From positions 1 to 24,017 of IMG/VR virus record IMGVR_UViG_3300042922_000770: 24,017 nucleotides of DNA; one strand, given 5' to 3'. Source of the stretch: a virus. Its lineage: Duplodnaviria; Caudoviricetes. This document shows positions 1,121 through 24,017 of the stretch, piece by piece; the first letter of the stretch is position 1, and every line of letters begins with the position of its first letter. The notes beneath the pieces are model-generated. The model saw only the letters and a program-made list of their open reading frames with translations. It searched no databases and had not been told where the DNA came from. A program made the translations under genes and the position numbers.

Positions 1121-1467
1121 TGGCACTGGAAACATTCACCTGGTCACCACAAAACGGTCCTACGGCAGACATCGAAAACCGGAATACGACTGCGCAATAT
1201 GGCGATGGCTACTCGCAGGTTGTGGGGGACGGGATTAATACGGAATCGCAGTCGTGGCCGCTGACATTTACTGGCTACAAATCGGAAATCCTGCCAATTC
1301 TGGCGTTTCTCCGGTCGCATGCGGAACGTCGAGCGTTCAAATGGATAAATCCGCTGGGTGAACTGGGGCTGTATCACGGGAAGTCGATAAAACCCACCAT
1401 TATTGATTTTGAGCGGATGTCTGTTACGGTCACACTCGTCACGGCCTACCGTGCGGAACCAATTTAA
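1120..1467 (+). CDS. Phage minor tail protein M (lambda gpM-like)
   Basis: 115 aa, METFTW..., AQYGDGYSQVVGDGIN motif, TAATG overlap with the tape measure stop. Confidence 0.92.
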   Translation: MALETFTWSPQNGPTADIENRNTTAQYGDGYSQVVGDGINTESQSWPLTFTGYKSEILPILAFLRSHAERRAFKWINPLGELGLYHGKSIKPTIIDFERMSVTVTLVTAYRAEPI

Positions 1468-1476
1468 GAGGGAAGA

Positions 1477-1824
1477 ATGAAAAAAATTACCGGCGCGCTA
1501 ATGGTGGCGGCCCTTACCGTAACCAGCGTGGCAGCACAGGCACGCGAACTCTCCCCTAAAGAGAAAGGAATTATTGAAGATGTCACTAAGCAGCAGCTAA
1601 AAGATCCGGAGAGCGCGAGATTTTTTTGGCAAGATTACAAGGGTGGGGAAATTTACTGCGCTCACGTTAATGCAAAGAACTCGTATGGAGGTTATGCGGG
1701 AAAGTCACTGCTTATCGCGGGTGTTAAAACTAGCAGCAACGGTGAAATTATATCCGCAGAAGTCACGACCCATAACGACAGTTTGATGAATCCTATCTGC
1801 ACAAAACGCGGTTACAAAGTTTAA
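1477..1824 (+). CDS. Hypothetical secreted/periplasmic protein inserted in the tail operon (moron-like)
   Basis: GAGGG RBS, Sec signal peptide (MKKITGALMVAALTVTSVAAQA), LKDPESARF and YCAHVNAKNSYGGYAG motifs, two Cys, more AT-rich than flanks, followed by a terminator. Confidence 0.85.
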   Translation: MKKITGALMVAALTVTSVAAQARELSPKEKGIIEDVTKQQLKDPESARFFWQDYKGGEIYCAHVNAKNSYGGYAGKSLLIAGVKTSSNGEIISAEVTTHNDSLMNPICTKRGYKV

Positions 1825-11979: not shown

Positions 11980-13683
11980 CTATATAGCGAGGTCATTGAC
12001 CTTAACGACATAATAGTCTCTGGCTTCTGGAATCAGTCTGTCGACCTTAGCCCCAAATTTTCCAGAGCTGACTTCGTCATAGTCTTGCCCATCCACCTGA
12101 ATGCTTTCGATATTCAGAAGGTGCCAGTGATTTTCTTTATCTTGAATGGCTAGTTTATCTGATTTTGCAACGGTGAAATTTATTTCTTCAGGAATGATCA
12201 GGGAATAGACCGTATTTCCTTTGTAACAGTGATTAAAATTCAACTTATAAATGCTTTCTCTGAAGTTAATTAAACCTTCTTGTTTAAAAGCTTCACGTGC
12301 AGCGGATTTTGTTATAATGCCTGTTTCTATCATGTGATAAATATTAAAAAGTTCATAAGTAAATGTCATGCCTCGGTTAGCCATTTCCGCATCTTCTATT
12401 TGAGTCTCATTAAATGGGATATTTATCCTTTCCATGGGAGCCCTGTAACGTTGATGATTGACTACATAGACAGCCTTGTAGGTATTTCCCGGATTAGACC
12501 TTCTTCTACGCAATGCTATTTTTGAAATTTGGGCACATAGAGCATCTGTTGAGGTTCCTCCAATGCCTTTTACTTCAAGTAAGAAATGAATGCCGTCATA
12601 TTGAAAGTTGAGATCTTCTTCGAATATTTCACCTGCATCCACATCCACGTTTTCATCAGGATCAATGACATTGGTAAACCCAATATATTCAAGAAACCAT
12701 TTTACTGAGAGAACAAGATCATCCCCAGTTTCTTTAAGCATATTTCTTAGCTTAACATTTTTATCATCATTATGAATCATTTCATATTCATTGTTTAGTT
12801 GAGAAATAGTTAGTTCATGGCGCTTTATTTCTTCAGCAATTTCAATAGATTTATTTTTTTCTTCAAGGGAAATATATGAAAAATCTTTAGTCCATGAGAA
12901 GTTATCGTTATCTGGGAAAAGATCCTGAAATTCAGGGAGTTCAGGTAAAACCTTTTCAAATAACTCAGATATAAATGAATCTTTATCAGCTAAGTCTGGG
13001 AAAACCATTATAGTTTTGTTACCTATTTTCCTAATGATGGAAACAGGTTCATTAGAGCCATTTACAGCTAAAACGACATCGTTAGTATATATATTAAATG
13101 CAACATTATAATGTGATTCAGGTAGAAATTTTATCAAGCATTTCTTAATTTCCTGATTGTCATGGCTTTGGTTAATTGAAATTCTATTGCCTGTTCTTTT
13201 GACGATATTGAAATAAGAATGAGGAAGGTAAAGAGAGTCAGATGTCAATTGGTAACCATCAGAGCCCTCGACCTCTATATTATAGGTTTGTTTGTCATAA
13301 TAGCTAGCAAAAAAAATGATAAGTTGTTTTTTATTTGTACTAAATGAATTCTTAATTGCATATGAAACATCAAGCGGAAATAAGTAGGCGACAGATGGTA
13401 TATTCCTATAGTAGACAGAGCGCCCATTATATGTATTTGATACAAAACCTTCACGGGGCGATGTATCTATAATTATTATTTCCGCTTCATGGCAGTTTCG
13501 TGGAACCTCGTTATTATATGGTATCGACATGCCGCCCCTTGAGCTACTGTCGTACTCTTTATAGCCATTCATTTTATGAGCGGAAGAATTAAAGCCTTTA
13601 GATTTTAAAAGCGCATTCATTGCCTCATCAGTATTTAATAAATATATAAGAGGCTGGGAGTTATCAATCATCTTCACATCCAC
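11980..13683 (-). CDS. AT-rich hypothetical protein with restriction-endonuclease-like PD-(D/E)xK domain (candidate defence protein)
   Basis: 567-aa ORF, much more AT-rich than flanks; coiled coil followed by FLEYIGF...EEDL-x9-LLEVKG...Q motif. Start could be GTG 13683 or ATG 13671. Confidence 0.7.
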   Translation of the reverse strand: MDVKMIDNSQPLIYLLNTDEAMNALLKSKGFNSSAHKMNGYKEYDSSSRGGMSIPYNNEVPRNCHEAEIIIIDTSPREGFVSNTYNGRSVYYRNIPSVAYLFPLDVSYAIKNSFSTNKKQLIIFFASYYDKQTYNIEVEGSDGYQLTSDSLYLPHSYFNIVKRTGNRISINQSHDNQEIKKCLIKFLPESHYNVAFNIYTNDVVLAVNGSNEPVSIIRKIGNKTIMVFPDLADKDSFISELFEKVLPELPEFQDLFPDNDNFSWTKDFSYISLEEKNKSIEIAEEIKRHELTISQLNNEYEMIHNDDKNVKLRNMLKETGDDLVLSVKWFLEYIGFTNVIDPDENVDVDAGEIFEEDLNFQYDGIHFLLEVKGIGGTSTDALCAQISKIALRRRRSNPGNTYKAVYVVNHQRYRAPMERINIPFNETQIEDAEMANRGMTFTYELFNIYHMIETGIITKSAAREAFKQEGLINFRESIYKLNFNHCYKGNTVYSLIIPEEINFTVAKSDKLAIQDKENHWHLLNIESIQVDGQDYDEVSSGKFGAKVDRLIPEARDYYVVKVNDLAI

Positions 13684-16460: not shown

Positions 16461-16490
16461 TTGACGTGTCGTGTCGATGCGAGCTAACGT
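16461..16490 (+). promoter_or_regulatory. Putative sigma70 promoter of the icd/anti-immunity operon
   Basis: TTGACG-N18-TAACGT with an A/T-rich upstream tract, just 5' of the first antisense target box. Confidence 0.45.
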
Positions 16491-16552
16491 TATGTCGCTG
16501 CAGCAAAATCTGCAGCCGGGCGTAGGAACCCGGATGACTAAGTGACGCATAG

Positions 16553-16574
16553 ACACGCGTTGGCGTGTTTTTTT
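16553..16574 (+). terminator. Attenuator-like terminator in the icd leader
   Basis: ACACGC-GTTG-GCGTGT followed by a T-run, between the upstream target boxes and the C4-like RNA. Confidence 0.55.
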
Positions 16575-16603
16575 GTATGCGTAGCCTGCACACACCGAAA
16601 TTA

Positions 16604-16681
16604 TGGTGGCTCAGGCGGGGCAGCCTTCGGGCTGGCCGGTACTCACTTAGGCCGGTATTCCTACCCCCGTCTGGGCTACCA
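16604..16681 (+). ncRNA. C4/CI/CA-type antisense immunity RNA (P1 c4, P4 CI, N15 CA family)
   Basis: Closing stem TGGTGGCTCAGGCGGGG/CCCCGTCTGGGCTACCA, CAGCC-TTCG-GGCTG hairpin. Loops TCACTTAG (16643-50) and TTCCTAC (16658-64) are complementary to CTAAGTG(A) and GTAGGAA boxes upstream (16522, 16538) and downstream (16693, 16721). Confidence 0.88.
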
Positions 16682-16739
16682 CCCTACAGAGCGTAGGAAC
16701 TCTGGTGGTAGCGATGCTCACTAAGTGGAGTCACGCACC

Positions 16740-16913
16740 ATGTTCAAATTCAAGTTCGCGGCTATCTGCCGTACCGATCGCAAAAATCATATCCATATTT
16801 TCAGTGCCGTTGCTTATAGCGAGCGCGATGCCCGTCGCCAGCTTGCAGGCCGTGCGCGCAAATTTATCCTGTTCTTTCAGGCTCGCCTGCCAGTCGCAGG
16901 AGGTGCCGCGTGA
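16740..16913 (+). CDS. icd: Host cell division inhibitor Icd/Kil-like protein
   Basis: ATG 16740 after GGAG; 57 aa, F.FAA..R..., A.SER.ARR.L....L.F.ARLP pattern; position directly after a C4-type RNA. Confidence 0.8.
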   Translation: MFKFKFAAICRTDRKNHIHIFSAVAYSERDARRQLAGRARKFILFFQARLPVAGGAA

Positions 16914-17137
16914 ACCAGCTCAAACTGAACGAACACGGCCTGTCGGAATCACTGGAATCGGTACTGGCGCAGATTAACGCGCTGGCCAACGTCGCGCACT
17001 TCACTATCAGCAATGCCAGCGCCTCGATTTATCTGGAGGACGCCGCGCAGCTGCTTATCACAATCAAGAATCTGGCCGCTGAGGCCGAACAGTACCGGAA
17101 CGAGTGGGAAGATCTGATACCACGGTCGCGTCGCTGA
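16910..17137 (+). CDS. Small helical hypothetical protein in the icd operon
   Basis: GTGA overlap with the icd stop, AGGAGG RBS, 75 aa amphipathic helices. Confidence 0.75.
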   Translation: MNQLKLNEHGLSESLESVLAQINALANVAHFTISNASASIYLEDAAQLLITIKNLAAEAEQYRNEWEDLIPRSRR

Positions 17138-18318
17138 TGCTGTACGCCATCCGCGTCCGCCTGTATCCGAACGCCGCGCAGCGGGAGTTTTTTGCTAAGA
17201 CGTTTGGCTGCTGCCGGTGGGTTTATAACGACGCGCTGGCGTACTGCCAGCGCCAGTACGAGGCGGGTGCGCCACGCCCGTCTGCGTACGATCTGATGAA
17301 GCGACTAACGCAGTTGAAGGCTGAATACCCCTGGCTTGCCGATGCGGACAGCCAGGCGCTGAAACAGGCCTGCGCGGATCTGGATGGCGCGTATAAGCAT
17401 TTTTTCCGTCGTGTCAAAAATGGCGAGACGCCGGGCTTTCCCCGGTTTAAATCGAAGCACCGGGGCGATGCCACCTACAACGCCACGGCTGCCACCAGTA
17501 TTGCGCTTGAGCCCCGCCAGCTGAAATTGCCGAAAGCGGGATGGGTACGCTGCCGGGGTGGCAGGGAATGGGAAGGTAAAATCAAACGGGCGACGGTACG
17601 GCAGACGCCGACCGGAAAATACTATGCCACCGTGCTGATTGATGACGGGCGCGACCTGCCGGTGCAGCCAACAACGAACCTGACGCCACTGGGTATCGAT
17701 GTCGGCTGTAAAACCGAAGGGTTCACGCACCAGTTTGTGGCACTGTCGACCGGAGAAATCATCACTGCTCCGGCGGAATATAAACGGCAGATGAAGCGGC
17801 TGCGCCGGGCATCCCGCCGGCTGGCCAGAAAACAGAAGGGCAGCGCCAATCGGTTAAAACAAAAACGCCGCGTCGCGCAGCTGCACGAGCGAATCAGTGC
17901 AGTTCGCCGGGATTTCCTGCACAAACTGACTCACCGCCTGACCTGCGAGAACCAAGCGCTGGCGATTGAGGATTTGAATGTGAAGGGGATGATGGCTAAG
18001 CCGGCACCGAAGCCCGACCCGGAACGCCCGGGCACGTTTCTGCCGAACGGCGCGATTCGTAAGCGCGGGCTTTCCCGGTCGCTGGCCAGCGCCAGCCTGG
18101 GCGAGTTTTTCCGCCAGCTGGAATATAAAAGTGCCTGGCGGGGTGTGGCATTGCTGAAAGTCAGCCGCTGGGAGCCGTCCAGCAAGCGCTGCAGCGGCTG
18201 CGGTGAAATTAACGATGCACTGACACTGGCCGACCGCCGGTGGCAGTGTCCGGCGTGCGGGTCAGAACTGCACCGCGACATTAACGCCGCCATGAATATC
18301 GCCGCGCGAGCGGTGTAA
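17137..18318 (+). CDS. tnpB: RNA-guided endonuclease TnpB family protein, RuvC triad intact, no tnpA
   Basis: ATG 17137 in a TGATG overlap; 393 aa; RLYPN..Q....FG..RWVYN..L HTH, GFPRFKSK, RuvC-I LGIDVG, RuvC-II AIEDLNV, Zn finger CSGC/CPAC, RuvC-III HRDINAA. Confidence 0.95.
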   Translation: MLYAIRVRLYPNAAQREFFAKTFGCCRWVYNDALAYCQRQYEAGAPRPSAYDLMKRLTQLKAEYPWLADADSQALKQACADLDGAYKHFFRRVKNGETPGFPRFKSKHRGDATYNATAATSIALEPRQLKLPKAGWVRCRGGREWEGKIKRATVRQTPTGKYYATVLIDDGRDLPVQPTTNLTPLGIDVGCKTEGFTHQFVALSTGEIITAPAEYKRQMKRLRRASRRLARKQKGSANRLKQKRRVAQLHERISAVRRDFLHKLTHRLTCENQALAIEDLNVKGMMAKPAPKPDPERPGTFLPNGAIRKRGLSRSLASASLGEFFRQLEYKSAWRGVALLKVSRWEPSSKRCSGCGEINDALTLADRRWQCPACGSELHRDINAAMNIAARAV

Positions 18319-18326
18319 CGAAAAAA

Positions 18327-18425
18327 TAGGGCGCGGCCCGCCCGAATCTACGCCTCCGGACATGGCCAGTGCGCCGTGGTAGAAAGAGGAAATTCCCGTA
18401 AATATTTGGTGGGTTTTGACGCTGG
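18327..18425 (+). ncRNA. Putative TnpB omega-RNA scaffold (boundaries uncertain)
   Basis: Directly 3' of tnpB; hairpins GGGCG-CGGCC-CGCCC and CATGGC-CAGTGC-GCCGTG enclosed by CCTC/GAGG; layout resembles tnpB 3' RNAs as recalled, not computed. Confidence 0.6.
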
Positions 18426-18462
18426 CTATAACCAGCTGATTAACCAGCCGAATCCCGCAAGA

Positions 18463-18552
18463 GGTTAGCCTACGCGGGCGGGGATAGGTCGAGGGACCAA
18501 TGAAGATAATTACCGGCGCGCTAGGTTAATCCACGCGGGCGGGGGTAGGTTG
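18463..18552 (+). CRISPR. CRISPR-like mini-array: two ~29-nt repeats with one 32-nt spacer
   Basis: R1 GGTTAGCCTACGCGGGCGGGGATAGGTCG (18463-91), R2 GGTTAATCCACGCGGGCGGGGGTAGGTTG (18524-52), 24/29 identical, 61-nt period; spacer 18492-18523 matches 1469-1500 at 28/32. Confidence 0.7.
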
Positions 18553-18574: not shown

Positions 18575-18602
18575 AAAAAAACCGCCATTAGGCGGTTTTT
18601 TT
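18575..18602. terminator. Bidirectional intrinsic terminator
   Basis: A7-CCGCC-ATTA-GGCGG-T7; closes the tnpB/array transcript and the convergent sRNA. Confidence 0.85.
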
Positions 18603-18695
18603 GGCAGTAGAGAATTGGCGTTCTTAACTGCAAGTCCACTTAAGCAAAAGATAGTTTGGCATCCATCAAATGTTTCGTGAGACTGTCGATTGGTC
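18575..18695 (-). ncRNA. Putative type I antitoxin sRNA (~120 nt)
   Basis: Minus-strand promoter TTGACG(18730-25)-N17-GACAAT(18707-02); first 19 nt are complementary to 19219-19237; internal hairpin 18604-31; ends at the bidirectional terminator. Confidence 0.6.
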
Positions 18696-19237
18696 AATTC
18701 AATTGTCAATCACTCTGACGAGTACGTCAACTATGAATTTAATAGTTGCCACTTCACATGCCGATCAGATAGCACTACAACGTGAAAAAAAGTTGTACTG
18801 TTCCGCTGGTATAGTTTTATAATTTTCAAAGACCAGGACCAATCCTATAAATGACATTCTGGTCAGTCCTCTTGGGGCGATTTAAGATCGATTTTTAAGC
18901 ATTAGTGAAAAAAAACAGTCAATCAGGGAGAAAGCATCAGCTCAAAAAGCTGGCACTGACTCTATATCTAGCTATGATTTCATAGCTTAACATCACTAAA
19001 ATGAGGAGGAGAAACATGATTATGAACAATTGTTCTAGTTTGTTTAGGCCCTTCTCTGGAAGGGCTTAAAACACTTTTAATAGTGAAGCTATTTTGGCCG
19101 TAACCGGCCGTTAATGGTATCGAATACTTAAGTCGCACGCCTGTGGCAAGGCATCTGTGGGTCCGAAGATTCGGAAGTTCATCCGGATCTCCGGATTGTG
19201 GCTTTTGCCCCAGAGGTTGTGAGACTGTCGATTGGTC
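18677..19237 (+). repeat. Perfect 19-bp direct repeat GTGAGACTGTCGATTGGTC at 18677-18695 and 19219-19237
   Basis: Read directly from the sequence. Confidence 0.95.
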
Positions 19238-19316
19238 CCTTCGGTCACTCATGAGTGATTTGGTTGCCCTGATGCTACCTCTTGAGATGCAGCCTCCTCT
19301 ATTAGAGGAGAAAAGC

Positions 19317-20575: not shown

Positions 20576-20899
20576 ATGATGAGAAACACCGATGTGACAG
20601 GTGGTTCCGCAAACTTAGCTTTGGCCGGGGCCAAAGATACACGTGTCGAGCTGCGAACCAGTGTCGATATAAAAGAGAAGTTGCGTGCAGCAGCCTCTCT
20701 GGCTGGGGTGGACTTGAGTGCTTTTATTCTGATGGCTGCGACACGAGCTGCACAACAGACGCTGGATGAACAGCGAATGCGTGTGTTTAGCGAGAAAGAG
20801 TGGGATCACATGAACGCGCTTATTAATTCACCCCGTCAGGCTGGCAATAAACTGCGCACGCTTATGACGGGAGAAGTTAAATATGAGCGAGATTTTTGA
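20576..20899 (+). CDS. DUF1778 (TacA/AtaR/KacA-like) RHH antitoxin
   Basis: KDTRVELRTS...KE.L..AA.L.G..LS.FI..AA...A...L pattern, P....L..LM tail; overlaps a GNAT gene. Confidence 0.9.
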   Translation: MMRNTDVTGGSANLALAGAKDTRVELRTSVDIKEKLRAAASLAGVDLSAFILMAATRAAQQTLDEQRMRVFSEKEWDHMNALINSPRQAGNKLRTLMTGEVKYERDF

Positions 20900-21431
20900 T
20901 GTAAAGTTAGTGAAAGGTGATTCCGATGTAAAACTTAACGGAATCAAAAAGTTCGATTGTGGCGACAAAGTTCTGAACGATTTTTTACAGCAACTTAAGC
21001 GCCAGTGCAGCCGTGACAACATCCAGGCATTATTGCTTGTTAATGGTGATGGTACTGTCATTGGGTTTGTTACGGCAGCTTTACAGCAGGTTGGGAAGGA
21101 TGTCATTCCGGAAGGGATTTATCCATACGCACTTCCCCCTGTATTTACAGCTATGAAGGTTCCTATGATTGCTATCGACAAGCAATATCAAAGGCAAGGA
21201 TGGGGACTACAGCTGATGCGCGCTATTTTGGATTACTGTCTTGAAAGCGCAGCATTGGTAAAAGGTATCAAGGGCGTGATCCTTGACGCCAAGGTTGAGG
21301 CTCGCAGCTTCTATGAGGACTTCGATTTTGAAGCGATCAGTGAGGAGGTCAGCCCTAACAATACCATCCCAATGTTCATAACGATGGACACCTTACGGGA
21401 TAGTAAAAGTAAGCTGGATAAAAGCGCGTAG
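20883..21431 (+). CDS. GNAT acetyltransferase toxin (TacT/AtaT/KacT-like)
   Basis: FDCG...LNDFL, acetyl-CoA loop IAIDKQYQRQGWG..L, LDA...A..FYE.F.F motifs. Confidence 0.9.
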   Translation: MSEIFDVKLVKGDSDVKLNGIKKFDCGDKVLNDFLQQLKRQCSRDNIQALLLVNGDGTVIGFVTAALQQVGKDVIPEGIYPYALPPVFTAMKVPMIAIDKQYQRQGWGLQLMRAILDYCLESAALVKGIKGVILDAKVEARSFYEDFDFEAISEEVSPNNTIPMFITMDTLRDSKSKLDKSA

Positions 21432-21644: not shown

Positions 21645-22835
21645 ATGACTGACACAGCCTATTCAAAAAGATTTCAAAGAGAAGTCGACCCTGAGCAATA
21701 CCTACAGCTGGTTGGAGTGGGGATAAACGACATTCATAGCCATGCAAGAGGCGATATTACATGTCCTATATGTGGAGCTGAAGGCGGAACGTTTGTTCGC
21801 GGGGCAACAAACGCAATGCGTAACCGAAGAGCTCACTTTCGCTTCAGAAATGCTGCTGATACGAGCAACCATCACCCAGCCTGTGACTACTACAATGATC
21901 GCCAGTCACCTGAATCAAGAAATCATCAGGTCTATTTTAGTCAAATCGATAAAACCAAAATAACAAAGGTGATACGACACATGGTATGTGCTGGAATTCA
22001 GGAACACCTTTTTACCCCTGACTCACTTCGTCAAATGCGGCAATGGATGTTTCAAAAACGAGTTGCATCGACTTTCATGGTGACGATTAGTTCAGAGCAG
22101 GTAGAGTGGTTAGAGTATCTGCGGGAGAAAGCGCAGGGTTTTATTAATCCAAAAGATATTGCGCCGTTTACACCAATTCAGGCAACCATCCCAGGTTTCT
22201 CCTGGAAAGACGCAATTCATAATGAGTTTATTCGCACTCATTCCTTTAATCTTTCCAAGCTTCAGGAGTTGAGGATATGGTATCCACAACTAAAAATGCT
22301 GCATCAGTTTGTGCGTAGCTCATCGGAAGCGTATCTGATTGACCCTGAGCTGTTAAGGAACGAATACCAAAAAACACGGCAACTGAACAATTTTATTATC
22401 AGCAACTATGCTGAGTTCAAGAATAAGGCGGTAAGGGATCGAGCTGACGGGGAGGTTAAGCTTCTTGCTTTCTCCGCTCTGCTTCTTTTTATTTCTGATT
22501 GGAATGTTGCCCAAGCTATCGAGAAATTCGCAATTATAGCCAATGTTCGTAAGGTTGATGACGATTTGGCTGCCAATTGCATTGGTCTTAACCCTTACCT
22601 TCGATATGAACTCGCTGAAACGGCTAAGAAGCTTCAAGAGAACGGCCCTTTCGATTATCAAGATATTGACTATTGGCAAGTCGAGCAACGAATGCGGCAT
22701 ATGTATGAAAAGGAAAATATTTCCCGCGCTGTGCCGCTTCCCCCACTGCCGGCTGATGAATACATTACACAACATCGGAAAAAAGAAGAGGATGAGGAAC
22801 GAATAAGACGCATGCTGAACAGCGAAGGAATATAG
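21645..22835 (+). CDS. Hypothetical protein with N-terminal Zn-ribbon-like motif
   Basis: 396-aa ORF, GGAG RBS, CPIC...AHFRF...HHPAC (CoiA-N-like arrangement); remainder unrecognised. Confidence 0.7.
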   Translation: MTDTAYSKRFQREVDPEQYLQLVGVGINDIHSHARGDITCPICGAEGGTFVRGATNAMRNRRAHFRFRNAADTSNHHPACDYYNDRQSPESRNHQVYFSQIDKTKITKVIRHMVCAGIQEHLFTPDSLRQMRQWMFQKRVASTFMVTISSEQVEWLEYLREKAQGFINPKDIAPFTPIQATIPGFSWKDAIHNEFIRTHSFNLSKLQELRIWYPQLKMLHQFVRSSSEAYLIDPELLRNEYQKTRQLNNFIISNYAEFKNKAVRDRADGEVKLLAFSALLLFISDWNVAQAIEKFAIIANVRKVDDDLAANCIGLNPYLRYELAETAKKLQENGPFDYQDIDYWQVEQRMRHMYEKENISRAVPLPPLPADEYITQHRKKEEDEERIRRMLNSEGI

Positions 22836-23032: not shown

Positions 23033-23584
23033 ATGCGAAACATAGTAAATGGAAAAAAACCTGACAATAGCGCTATGGCAAAGAAGATGTTAATTATGCT
23101 GGTTATCACTATCATGCCATTGCCAATTGCTTTCGCTATCTTCTTAAATGATCCTCAATCTCAAATGCTCAGTTCCATATCTGCAGCAACAAGTGACTTT
23201 CCTGTACTCTGGTCCGTTAATAATCCCTTACTTAGTTCAGTGATGAATGCATGGTGCAAGACAGCGCCTTTTTGGGGATTGATTTTATTTATAATGTCAT
23301 TTAATCACATTGAAATAAATGGCAGGCAATCAGCGAGAGAAATGGTCAAAGGACTTGTATTATTCTCAGTGTTGTACTTTCCAATAATGTATATGTTGTT
23401 GCTTCACTCTACGGAGATAACTGAGTCCGGTAAGATTTATCAGGTAATGTCACAAAATGACTTTTTGCTGACTCTGCTTTTCATGAGTATTTATGCGGTG
23501 TGTTATATATCTACTGCTTATTACCTGCTCATAGTTGCTGCAACATGTAAGGCCTTAAGTAAAAAACGCAAGTTGTCATTTTAA
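23033..23584 (+). CDS. Colicin A/B/N-type immunity protein (inner membrane)
   Basis: 183 aa, four hydrophobic segments, P..WS.NNPLLS..M..WCKTAP motif, convergent with a pore-forming colicin gene. Confidence 0.88.
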   Translation: MRNIVNGKKPDNSAMAKKMLIMLVITIMPLPIAFAIFLNDPQSQMLSSISAATSDFPVLWSVNNPLLSSVMNAWCKTAPFWGLILFIMSFNHIEINGRQSAREMVKGLVLFSVLYFPIMYMLLLHSTEITESGKIYQVMSQNDFLLTLLFMSIYAVCYISTAYYLLIVAATCKALSKKRKLSF

Positions 23585-23602
23585 TTTCCAGATTATAAAA
23601 AT

Positions 23603-23632
23603 AAAAGGCAGACGGTTTCCCGTCTGCCTTTT
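23603..23632. terminator. Bidirectional terminator between immunity and toxin genes
   Basis: AAAAGGCAGACGG-TTTC-CCGTCTGCCTTTT. Confidence 0.85.
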
Positions 23633-23634
23633 AA

Positions 23635-24017
23635 TTAACGCGCCGGACGAATCACTTCATTGTTGATTTTGTCGACCAGCTTATCATCAATAAGTGATGC
23701 AGCCAGGCTGATCGCGATAACGCCGACGATCATGACTGCGGTTACCGGCAGGCCAGCTGTAGACGCAAGGAAAGTAGCCAGCGATGCAAGAATGCTCAGC
23801 GCAAAGCCTGTTGCAATACCGCTTAACACCCACGACTCTACTTCAAGCAGTAACGGCTTCCAGTTTCCGGTATTGATGCCTTCGATAGACTTCTGTCGGG
23901 CTTTCTCAACTTTCATGATTATATCCGCAGCAGAAAAAGCCTTGCCCAGATAAGCGAACTTATAGGCCATATCGGTAGCATTAAGATGGTTCCATGCATT
24001 GATAATCGCGGCTTTGT
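23635..24017 (-). CDS. Colicin A-like pore-forming bacteriocin, C-terminal part (5' end outside window)
   Basis: Frame open to the window edge (KAAIINAWNHLNATDMA...); MKVEK.R.KSIEG..TGNW.PL.LEVESWVLSGIA, hydrophobic hairpin and IDDK..D..NNE.IRPA end closely match the colicin A channel domain. Confidence 0.93.
   Translation of the reverse strand, partial: KAAIINAWNHLNATDMAYKFAYLGKAFSAADIIMKVEKARQKSIEGINTGNWKPLLLEVESWVLSGIATGFALSILASLATFLASTAGLPVTAVMIVGVIAISLAASLIDDKLVDKINNEVIRPAR

Follow-up and report, generated by a model that had tools for sequence, protein, structure and literature searches.

A TnpB locus of phage-plasmids whose omegaRNA probably receives its guides from host type I-E Cas1-Cas2

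Introduction

Cas12r, carried by the Thermus Lalka phages, is a phage-borne TnpB-derived nuclease without cas1-cas2; it is described with degenerate 29-bp I-E-like repeats, 31-33-nt spacers, an A-rich ARG PAM and new spacers next to the gene (10.64898/2026.04.20.719267). For this phage type V system host I-E adaptation was tentatively proposed, along with mobile-element conflict (10.64898/2026.04.20.719267). TranC systems likewise join a TnpB-sized nuclease to a downstream variable array (10.64898/2026.03.27.714800, 10.1101/2025.09.28.678669). Their clades are described with 32-38-bp repeats, 3-20 in number, and by a second-hand account CauTranC9 comes from a phage, belongs to a clade averaging 414 aa and has an array that targets phages. 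Arrays have been proposed to arise from omegaRNA segments, with no writer named in the consulted part of that paper (PMC10691335). Type IV-A3 arrays are found on mobile elements, have an I-E-like repeat and leader, and are filled in trans by Cas1/2e with 33-bp spacers that keep the G of AAG, a mark of I-E adaptation, in a setting of inter-element competition (10.1101/2023.06.23.546257). Viral mini-arrays and RNA anti-CRISPRs hold one or two spacers against related viruses, with host-identical repeats and, as described, no effector of their own (PMC11656645).

The locus analysed here resembles each of these systems in part. It resembles ISDra2/IS605 TnpB (PMC10097598) in its protein over the full length, in the scaffold motifs and in a guide position at the scaffold's 3' end, but it has no Y1 TnpA (five records), would take a variable spacer as guide instead of flanking DNA, carries a leader insert of about 65 nt, and has an inferred target motif of AA or AAG instead of five bases. 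Cas12r has 564 aa and is described as having no tracr or scaffold RNA, whereas the TnpB studied here has 393 aa and a conserved omegaRNA, so that by description the two are set apart; our system further differs in an omegaRNA predicted to end in the first repeat with the leader inside, in its residence on Enterobacterales N15-like phage-plasmids and in its sibling-phage targets. Compared with TranC, the repeats are 28 (29) bp and only two or three in number, and the TranC descriptions consulted mention no I-E link. The effector of type IV-A3 is of class 1, has several subunits and is borne by conjugative plasmids, whereas this locus has a single TnpB with its omegaRNA, and in contrast to viral mini-arrays the repeats are fused to the TnpB scaffold and form no hairpin. 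Within the open-licence literature, subscription papers and preprint supplements lying outside the scope, we found no description of this system, and the consulted part of the PMC10691335 supplement has no Salmonella or I-E entry.

We estimate a probability of roughly 0.7 that host type I-E Cas1-Cas2 writes spacers into the TnpB omegaRNA and that the newest spacer guides TnpB against sibling phages. The more specific proposal is a self-rewriting single-guide RNA, with an I-E leader stem inside the omegaRNA and a repeat as its 3' end, in which each integration by host Cas1-Cas2 would replace the guide of a TnpB that otherwise stays as it is; we give this slightly better than even odds.

Results

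Genomic setting

The window, by which we mean the whole stretch of 24,017 nt that was analysed, is a 24-kb virus record that is about 52% complete as a genome. Among its genes are those for a lambdoid tail, umuDC-like genes and sopB/sopA; it also has an operon led by C4/IsrK, and a colicin-like fragment accompanied by an immunity gene. The closest relatives of its sopAB genes (70%) belong to Salmonella phage-plasmids, and because these carry a protelomerase we regard the window as part of an N15-like phage-plasmid.

The operon runs c4 - icd-like - orf75 - tnpB, with tnpB as its last gene (Table 1). We take the C4 antisense RNA, on its predicted role, to control this operon, and presume the same C4 control for the icd/ant operon of N15. 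The presence of an icd/ant operon in N15 has been reported (PMC10612081). A promoter scan of the window gave nothing above chance, and the hairpin behind the array is absent from the terminator-scan list. The orf75 gene adjoins tnpB in L001-L005, L116 and L120; in L292, a relative without TnpB, homologues of the icd-like gene and orf75 are followed by a BRO-family gene in the tnpB slot.

The site of the cassette varies, being beside sopA, next to the telomere or within terminase genes, and it therefore moves as a block. In the Salmonella records L116 (5057-5900) and L117 (7182-7950) some 0.4-0.5 kb separate the array from the centre of an assembly inverted repeat, which places it next to the hairpin telomere. 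The Klebsiella phage-plasmid L120 (19240-21500), and also L121, has the whole c4-icd-orf-tnpB cassette between terS and terL.

Elsewhere in the window, a colicin immunity gene faces the C-terminal part of a pore-forming colicin-like gene that is cut at the window end (23033-23970), and L120 likewise has a colicin-like gene. A small gene and a GNAT acetyltransferase stand in a toxin-antitoxin-like arrangement with no PADLOC match (20576-21431), and two long ORFs of 567 and 396 aa in cargo positions (11980-13683 and 21645-22835) have no Pfam or PADLOC match. The AT-rich stretch behind the array contains a 24-nt direct repeat (92%; 18677-18700 and 19219-19242, 542 nt apart).

Table 1. Features of the locus in window coordinates, and protospacers of the family's spacers. 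AA/G denotes AA followed by the first matched base, G.
Feature	Position	Strand	Details
c4-a1b1 target / IsrK-like RNA, operon head	16484..16573	+	Rfam RF03163 E 4.5e-10, RF01394 E 1.6e-14
C4 antisense RNA	16599..16686	+	Rfam RF01695, 79.8 bits
icd-like gene	16740..16913	+	57-93% identity to Icd-like annotated genes in L116, L120, L292 and others
orf75, 75-aa gene without assigned function	16910..17137	+	stop overlaps tnpB start
TnpB, 393 aa, IS605/ISDra2-like	17137..18318	+	Pfam PF12323, PF01385, PF07282
Predicted omegaRNA scaffold	18325..18490	+	conserved in 7 aligned loci; 5' limit provisional
Inserted stem-loop bearing I-E leader upstream motif	18404..18453	+	predicted fold
Repeat 1 (R1), 28 nt	18463..18490	+	3' half 18474-18485 predicted to close omegaRNA
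Spacer, 33 nt, first base the PAM-derived G; likely TnpB guide	18491..18523	+	differs in every orthologue
Repeat 2 (R2), diverged terminal repeat	18524..18551	+	23/28 to R1
Terminator-like hairpin with A and T runs	18575..18602	+	12-pair stem, -15.7 kcal/mol
Own near-match of window spacer	1466..1500	+	AA/G at 1466-1468, 29/33 at 1468-1500
Protospacer of window spacer			own site, 29/33; TTT before AA/G
Protospacer of L001 spacer			neck-region hypothetical gene, 32/33; GTC before AA/G
Protospacer of L002 spacer			protelomerase, 33/33; CGA before AA/G
Protospacer of L116 s1			tape measure, 33/33; TTC before AA/G
Protospacer of L116 s2			tape measure, 31/33 with one gap; GTT before AA/G
Protospacer of X7 unit			start of tail gene, 33/33; ACA before AA/G
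Protospacer of X3 unit			head-tail connector, 33/34; ACG before AA/G
Protospacer of X16 unit			protelomerase end, one mismatch in 31 nt seen; TAA before AA/G
Protospacer of L117 s1 (31 nt)			tape measure, 29/31; GA/G, AAG two bases upstream being the 33-nt register

TnpB and its predicted omegaRNA

The window TnpB matches ISDra2 TnpB over its full length (E 7e-68) and has the RuvC residues D188, E278 and D381 together with a four-cysteine zinc finger. These three residues and four cysteines are conserved in 69-70 of 70 aligned full-length homologues, one fragment among the 71 having been omitted. Between the tnpB genes of the window and L001 there are 125 synonymous and 55 non-synonymous codon changes. 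Judged by its residues the protein looks intact and would be expected to cut DNA. An AlphaFold model was of poor quality (pLDDT 57, pTM 0.34) and was left unused.

Close TnpBs occur in 5 of 35 viral loci and in eight plasmid records; 71 protein clusters lie past E 1e-100, and one cluster, named from Salmonella, has 659 member sequences. A scan of genome contigs returned no relative above 48%, E. coli genomes gave no match, and none of 401 Enterobacteriaceae genomes had this protein at E 1e-120. In a metagenome motif scan one of 103 loci was TnpB-linked, and it is a copy of L004. A search for TnpA of the Y1 type was negative in all five records. LaTranC aligns with the window TnpB over the C-terminal 90 aa only (E 1e-18), and the PADLOC Cas12u4 and Cas12f models match it at E 1e-80, a level that has no plain-TnpB baseline. 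The window TnpB may belong to some TranC clade. Among more distant homologues, the TnpB of Aeromonas phage phiARM81ld (L119:3227-4465, about 59% identity) has neither the scaffold motif nor a nearby 61-nt period. In L003 (10001-11178), the closest relative, tnpB is frameshifted as assembled while the array looks intact, which assembly error or decay may explain.

The conserved segment behind tnpB is predicted to fold by pairing of 18474-18485 with 18392-18398 and 18454-18458, around the leader stem, and R1 is thereby modelled as the TnpB omegaRNA's 3' end. The scaffold is continuous into R1, one pairing strand abutting the repeat. Both sides change in 7 of 28 named pairs, a result reached in 0 of 500 shuffles; this comparison uses seven close sequences and ignores their kinship. 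The scaffolds of L002 and L003 take a partly different predicted fold, and Rfam gave no omegaRNA match in the window. Under a strict pattern, 9 of 92 generic TnpB loci share two motifs with the scaffold. Where the case is clear, in the generic IS605 loci L007, L011 and L059, the element ends about 30 nt past the second motif, compared with about 100 nt here, and the leader therefore looks inserted into an omegaRNA ending in R1. In an ensemble of the whole transcript, the closing strand prefers R1 (0.32) over R2 (0.05); the inner scaffold strand pairs with R2 (0.66) over R1 (0.31), which we count against our preferred reading.

L005 (9790-11440) encodes a TnpB of 75% identity; two short omegaRNA copies lie upstream of its gene, and downstream of it three scaffold ends follow at 61- and 60-nt spacing without a leader stem; no targets were found for these. 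We count this spacing without the leader stem against our preferred reading.

Array and repeats

A repeat-spacer-repeat arrangement with a 61-nt period occupies 18463-18552, starting 145 nt behind tnpB. The original prediction had read it as a 29-nt repeat with a 32-nt spacer, the geometry of type I-E, and the period is confirmed; the better register is a 28-nt repeat followed by a 33-nt unit whose first base is the G of AAG. R1 and R2 agree at 24 of 29 positions in the longer register, and the terminal repeat is degenerate in the orthologues as well. The likeness of R1 to the E. coli-type repeat, given as 18/29, was reproduced with R1 plus the next base against the K-12 repeat in L294. The window R1 matches the host I-E consensus at 17 of 28 positions and the phage repeats together at 15-17/28, this consensus being that of 26 Enterobacteriaceae arrays, which may not be that of the window's host; the likeness is concentrated in the repeat 3' half.

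Seven loci (the window, L001-L004, L116 and L117) have the scaffold, the 28-nt repeat, a spacer and a diverged last repeat, while L118 is cut before the array. L116 and L117 hold two spacers each, with near-perfect middle repeats, and one or two spacers is the range in all loci and runs seen. The nine spacers at these loci are all different and all begin with G; seven measure 33 nt, one 32 nt and one 31 nt. Units from the isolate runs are 33 and 34 nt long and begin with G in three of three cases. Host I-E spacers, taken from arrays at 26 of 30 cas2-anchored loci, begin with G in 442 of 451 cases and are 33 nt long in 432 of 451. As a control for chance, the best 28-nt self-match at a period of 58-63 behind 85 generic TnpB loci was 12-17/28, compared with 23-28/28 for the same scan in the seven related array loci.

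The repeats do not fold as I-E repeats do. As had been noted from the sequence, the repeat stem is weak, with a fold z of 0.12 (R1) and 0.51 (R2) against -3.36 for E. coli; across five phage repeats z ranges from 0.12 to 1.15, with no common hairpin and with folds that differ between orthologues. The window was also correctly described as holding no cas genes: neither Cas1 nor Cas6e was found there, and a search of five records found no Cas1. The Cas6e search is a weak test, being positive in 1 of 14 control genomes and applied to about half of a genome.

L120 and L121 lack the leader motif and a clear second repeat (15/28). The starts of terL are what the L120 guide matches: the match in L359 follows TA, and the one in the L120 record itself, which needs a gap, follows AA. 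This form may be of a homing type or decayed; that it represents an array-less ancestor was considered and is not established.

Leader motif and spacer addition

Type I-E leaders have an upstream motif. In our leader profile, built from 25 distinct host leaders picked by cas2 and not by motif, TGGTRG stands at -55 in 19 of the 25. All seven phage loci have the motif at -53 to -56 with scores of 10.3-16.2, at a background fraction of 1e-4; leave-one-out scores of the host leaders have a median of 15.6 and a minimum of 6.8. The window motif (18407-18412, position -56) scores 16.2, and L120 scores -13.7, meaning that the motif is absent. The seven phage leader loci are related and represent about three independent variants, and structure alone may help to conserve the motif because it doubles as an arm of the RNA stem. 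The region of the IHF site scores -7.7 to 3.1 in the phages (background fraction 0.004-0.055), whereas no host leader scores below 14.2 there, and most loci have a poor fit at the junction bases.

The polarity of the array was assessed by comparing 8 of 24 listed isolate runs with L001. In six of the eight a further unit separates R1 from the shared old spacer, and two different units are involved: in X7 it is a single 33-nt unit that follows R1 and precedes the L001 spacer, while X3, X6, X13, X14 and X15 have a different 34-nt unit likewise on the R1 side, the order having been pieced together from contig fragments. In X16, on a different allele, R1 is followed by a third spacer, and X8 is identical to L001. 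Five of the eight runs carry a flag as possible sources of the DNA. We read this as addition of new units on the leader (TnpB) side; loss in L001 could yield part of the pattern.

Protospacers and target motif

The AAG before the window's own near-match and its four mismatches at positions 6, 7, 14 and 16 (32-nt register) were found as originally stated; in the 33-nt register the mismatches are 7, 8, 15 and 17. When the spacer was shuffled, no site in the window came within fewer than 10 mismatches in 500 of 500 trials. The near-match overlaps a 115-aa gene (1477-1824) at its ribosome site and start. This gene is inserted among tail genes, has 46% GC and no Pfam match, and is followed by a terminator-like hairpin; its relatives in viral contigs number only two, and the phages that have them, those of the L003 and L004 records, both carry TnpB.

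A comparison of AAG with TTTAA across database protospacers, as the original prediction proposed, favours the former. Eight of the nine mappable protospacers have AA/G, the background frequency of AA preceding G being 0.045, and one of the nine has TTTAA. TTTAA is ruled out as the common target motif, occurring only at the window's own site. At the -3 position of the AA/G protospacers all four letters occur. Protospacers entered this count by sequence match alone, with the L004 and L003 spacers, L117 s2 and the L005 and L120 guides left out. The L004 spacer has 49 non-self matches with 6-7 mismatches, and at its best matches there are 5-6 mismatches and AA/A. No viral protospacer match was found for the L003 spacer or L117 s2, nor an exact viral match for either end of the window spacer, and the phage collection gave only chance-level matches for the L116 and L117 spacers. 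Three spacers correspond to the non-coding and six to the coding strand, and their origin from both strands fits DNA targeting.

The targets are sibling N15-like phage-plasmids. None of the nine locus spacers has fewer than four mismatches to its own record (several of these records are partial), and five of the nine match a sibling within two differences. Between the phages of L001 and L002 (the latter taken together with a contig sharing the record prefix) the matching is mutual, the spacer of each having its target in the other. Counted against our preferred reading, the L001 record has a 33/33 match with AAG for the X7 spacer and, for the X16 spacer, a match that differs at one of the 31 nt seen; self-targets would be tolerated if the phages of the X7 and X16 isolates themselves carry those sites. 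At one L001 protospacer, in L293 near 28600-28634, AAT stands instead of AAG, possibly through escape or plain divergence.

For ISDra2 TnpB, double mismatches in positions 1-12 are reported to abolish cutting (PMC10097598). The 29/33 site in the window is most likely the homologue of a sibling allele, protected by the adjacent mismatches 7 and 8. Sibling alleles L295 and L296 vary at this site, and because they do so and the start codon is in register, the window spacer likely came from an unsampled sibling. Repression of the phage's own 115-aa gene as the purpose of the family is ruled out, as the orthologues target other genes.

Discussion

Acquisition by host I-E Cas1-Cas2, already suggested in the original prediction, is well supported because the units are of 33 nt and begin with G, the protospacers have AA/G, the leader motif is present and additions occur on the TnpB side; the part that fits less well is the low-scoring IHF-site region. 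As one of three possibilities, that prediction also had TnpB co-opt the array at a later time. The link to TnpB is most likely right; the order is probably wrong or incomplete because R1 itself is the predicted omegaRNA 3' end.

Of the ways in which such an array might be used, one has host Cascade-Cas3 as the effector of an array filled by host Cas1-Cas2, in the manner of viral mini-arrays, with TnpB a neighbour or leftover. The AAG PAM, the 61-nt period and the leader motif are indeed all I-E features, yet we consider this very improbable: no I-E hairpin is present in any of five phage repeats, the predicted folds vary among orthologues, the repeats agree with those of the host at 15-17/28 and are not identical, and in every case the array is joined to a conserved omegaRNA and to a TnpB whose catalytic residues are intact. 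The suggestion that the array borrows host Cascade thus finds no favour in the repeats, and the mismatch at position 6, taken as a flipped-out position in Cascade, is no pointer to that complex because position 7 mismatches too. An RNA decoy would need the Cas6e hairpin, which the repeats lack, and this also speaks against the decoy role first envisaged. Such a decoy (an anti-CRISPR RNA), or a chance or recombinational duplication of the omegaRNA end with no part for Cas1-Cas2, would accord with the degenerate repeat, with the several omegaRNA copies in L005 and with the irregular omegaRNA arrays that have been described (PMC10691335), but neither leads one to expect fixed 33-nt units, an invariant first G, AA/G protospacers and leader-side additions, and we find either one barely credible.

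A different question is what TnpB does with a guide written by Cas1-Cas2. Mainly binding and repressing, be it the phage's own 115-aa gene or the gene starts of siblings, without cutting, would suit the observation that three sequences, the spacers of the window and of X7 and the guide of L120, span a ribosome site with its start codon and each match, nearly or in full, a genome that has the cassette, as well as the place of tnpB in an antirepressor-type operon. Conservation of the catalytic residues in nearly all homologues argues against it, as do the six other targets, which lie inside genes or at a gene end and on both strands; ribosome sites, being rich in purines, moreover often contain AAG, and the matches at start codons may have this explanation; we judge repression distinctly unlikely. 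It is unlikely, too, that the scaffold is a tracr-like RNA split from the array in the manner of TranC or type V, so that all spacers are used, with writer and effector as we propose. Near-perfect middle repeats in L116 and L117, the capacity of the inner scaffold strand to pair with R2 and a second-hand report of RNA splitting in TranC (10.64898/2026.03.27.714800) point in that direction; against it, the scaffold runs unbroken into R1 with one pairing strand abutting the repeat, and no locus or run seen has more than one or two spacers.

In the reading that we prefer, writing by host Cas1-Cas2 and reading by TnpB, host Cas1-Cas2 would capture, during co-infection, a 33-bp AAG-flanked piece of a sibling phage-plasmid. 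Integration of this piece at the leader-repeat junction would put it in the guide position of the omegaRNA and push the old spacer back, and the guide would then be trimmed to TnpB length. TnpB, whose gene occupies the slot of a BRO-family gene in a relative and is presumably expressed as part of the C4-controlled icd operon, would cut incoming or co-resident siblings at sites with AA or AAG as target motif. Self-directed spacers would be purged or escape.

We place the system as a variant among the TnpB-to-type-V intermediates represented by TranC and Cas12r. It bears on how TnpB lineages gained spacer acquisition en route to Cas12: the writer is identifiable here from sequence, through the 33-bp units, AAG, the leader motif and the leader-side additions, while the scaffold is still whole. 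If the self-rewriting single-guide RNA proposed above is real, a single phage gene of 393 aa together with about 230 nt of RNA would suffice for adaptive immunity, with spacers being added in present-day isolates, and the locus would show the first step by which a TnpB gains an array. It would also provide a nuclease of 393 aa that programs itself from recorded DNA and needs only AA or AAG, a short motif. For the N15-like phage-plasmids it would amount to a mechanism of competition, in which a virus carries a self-updating weapon against its relatives.
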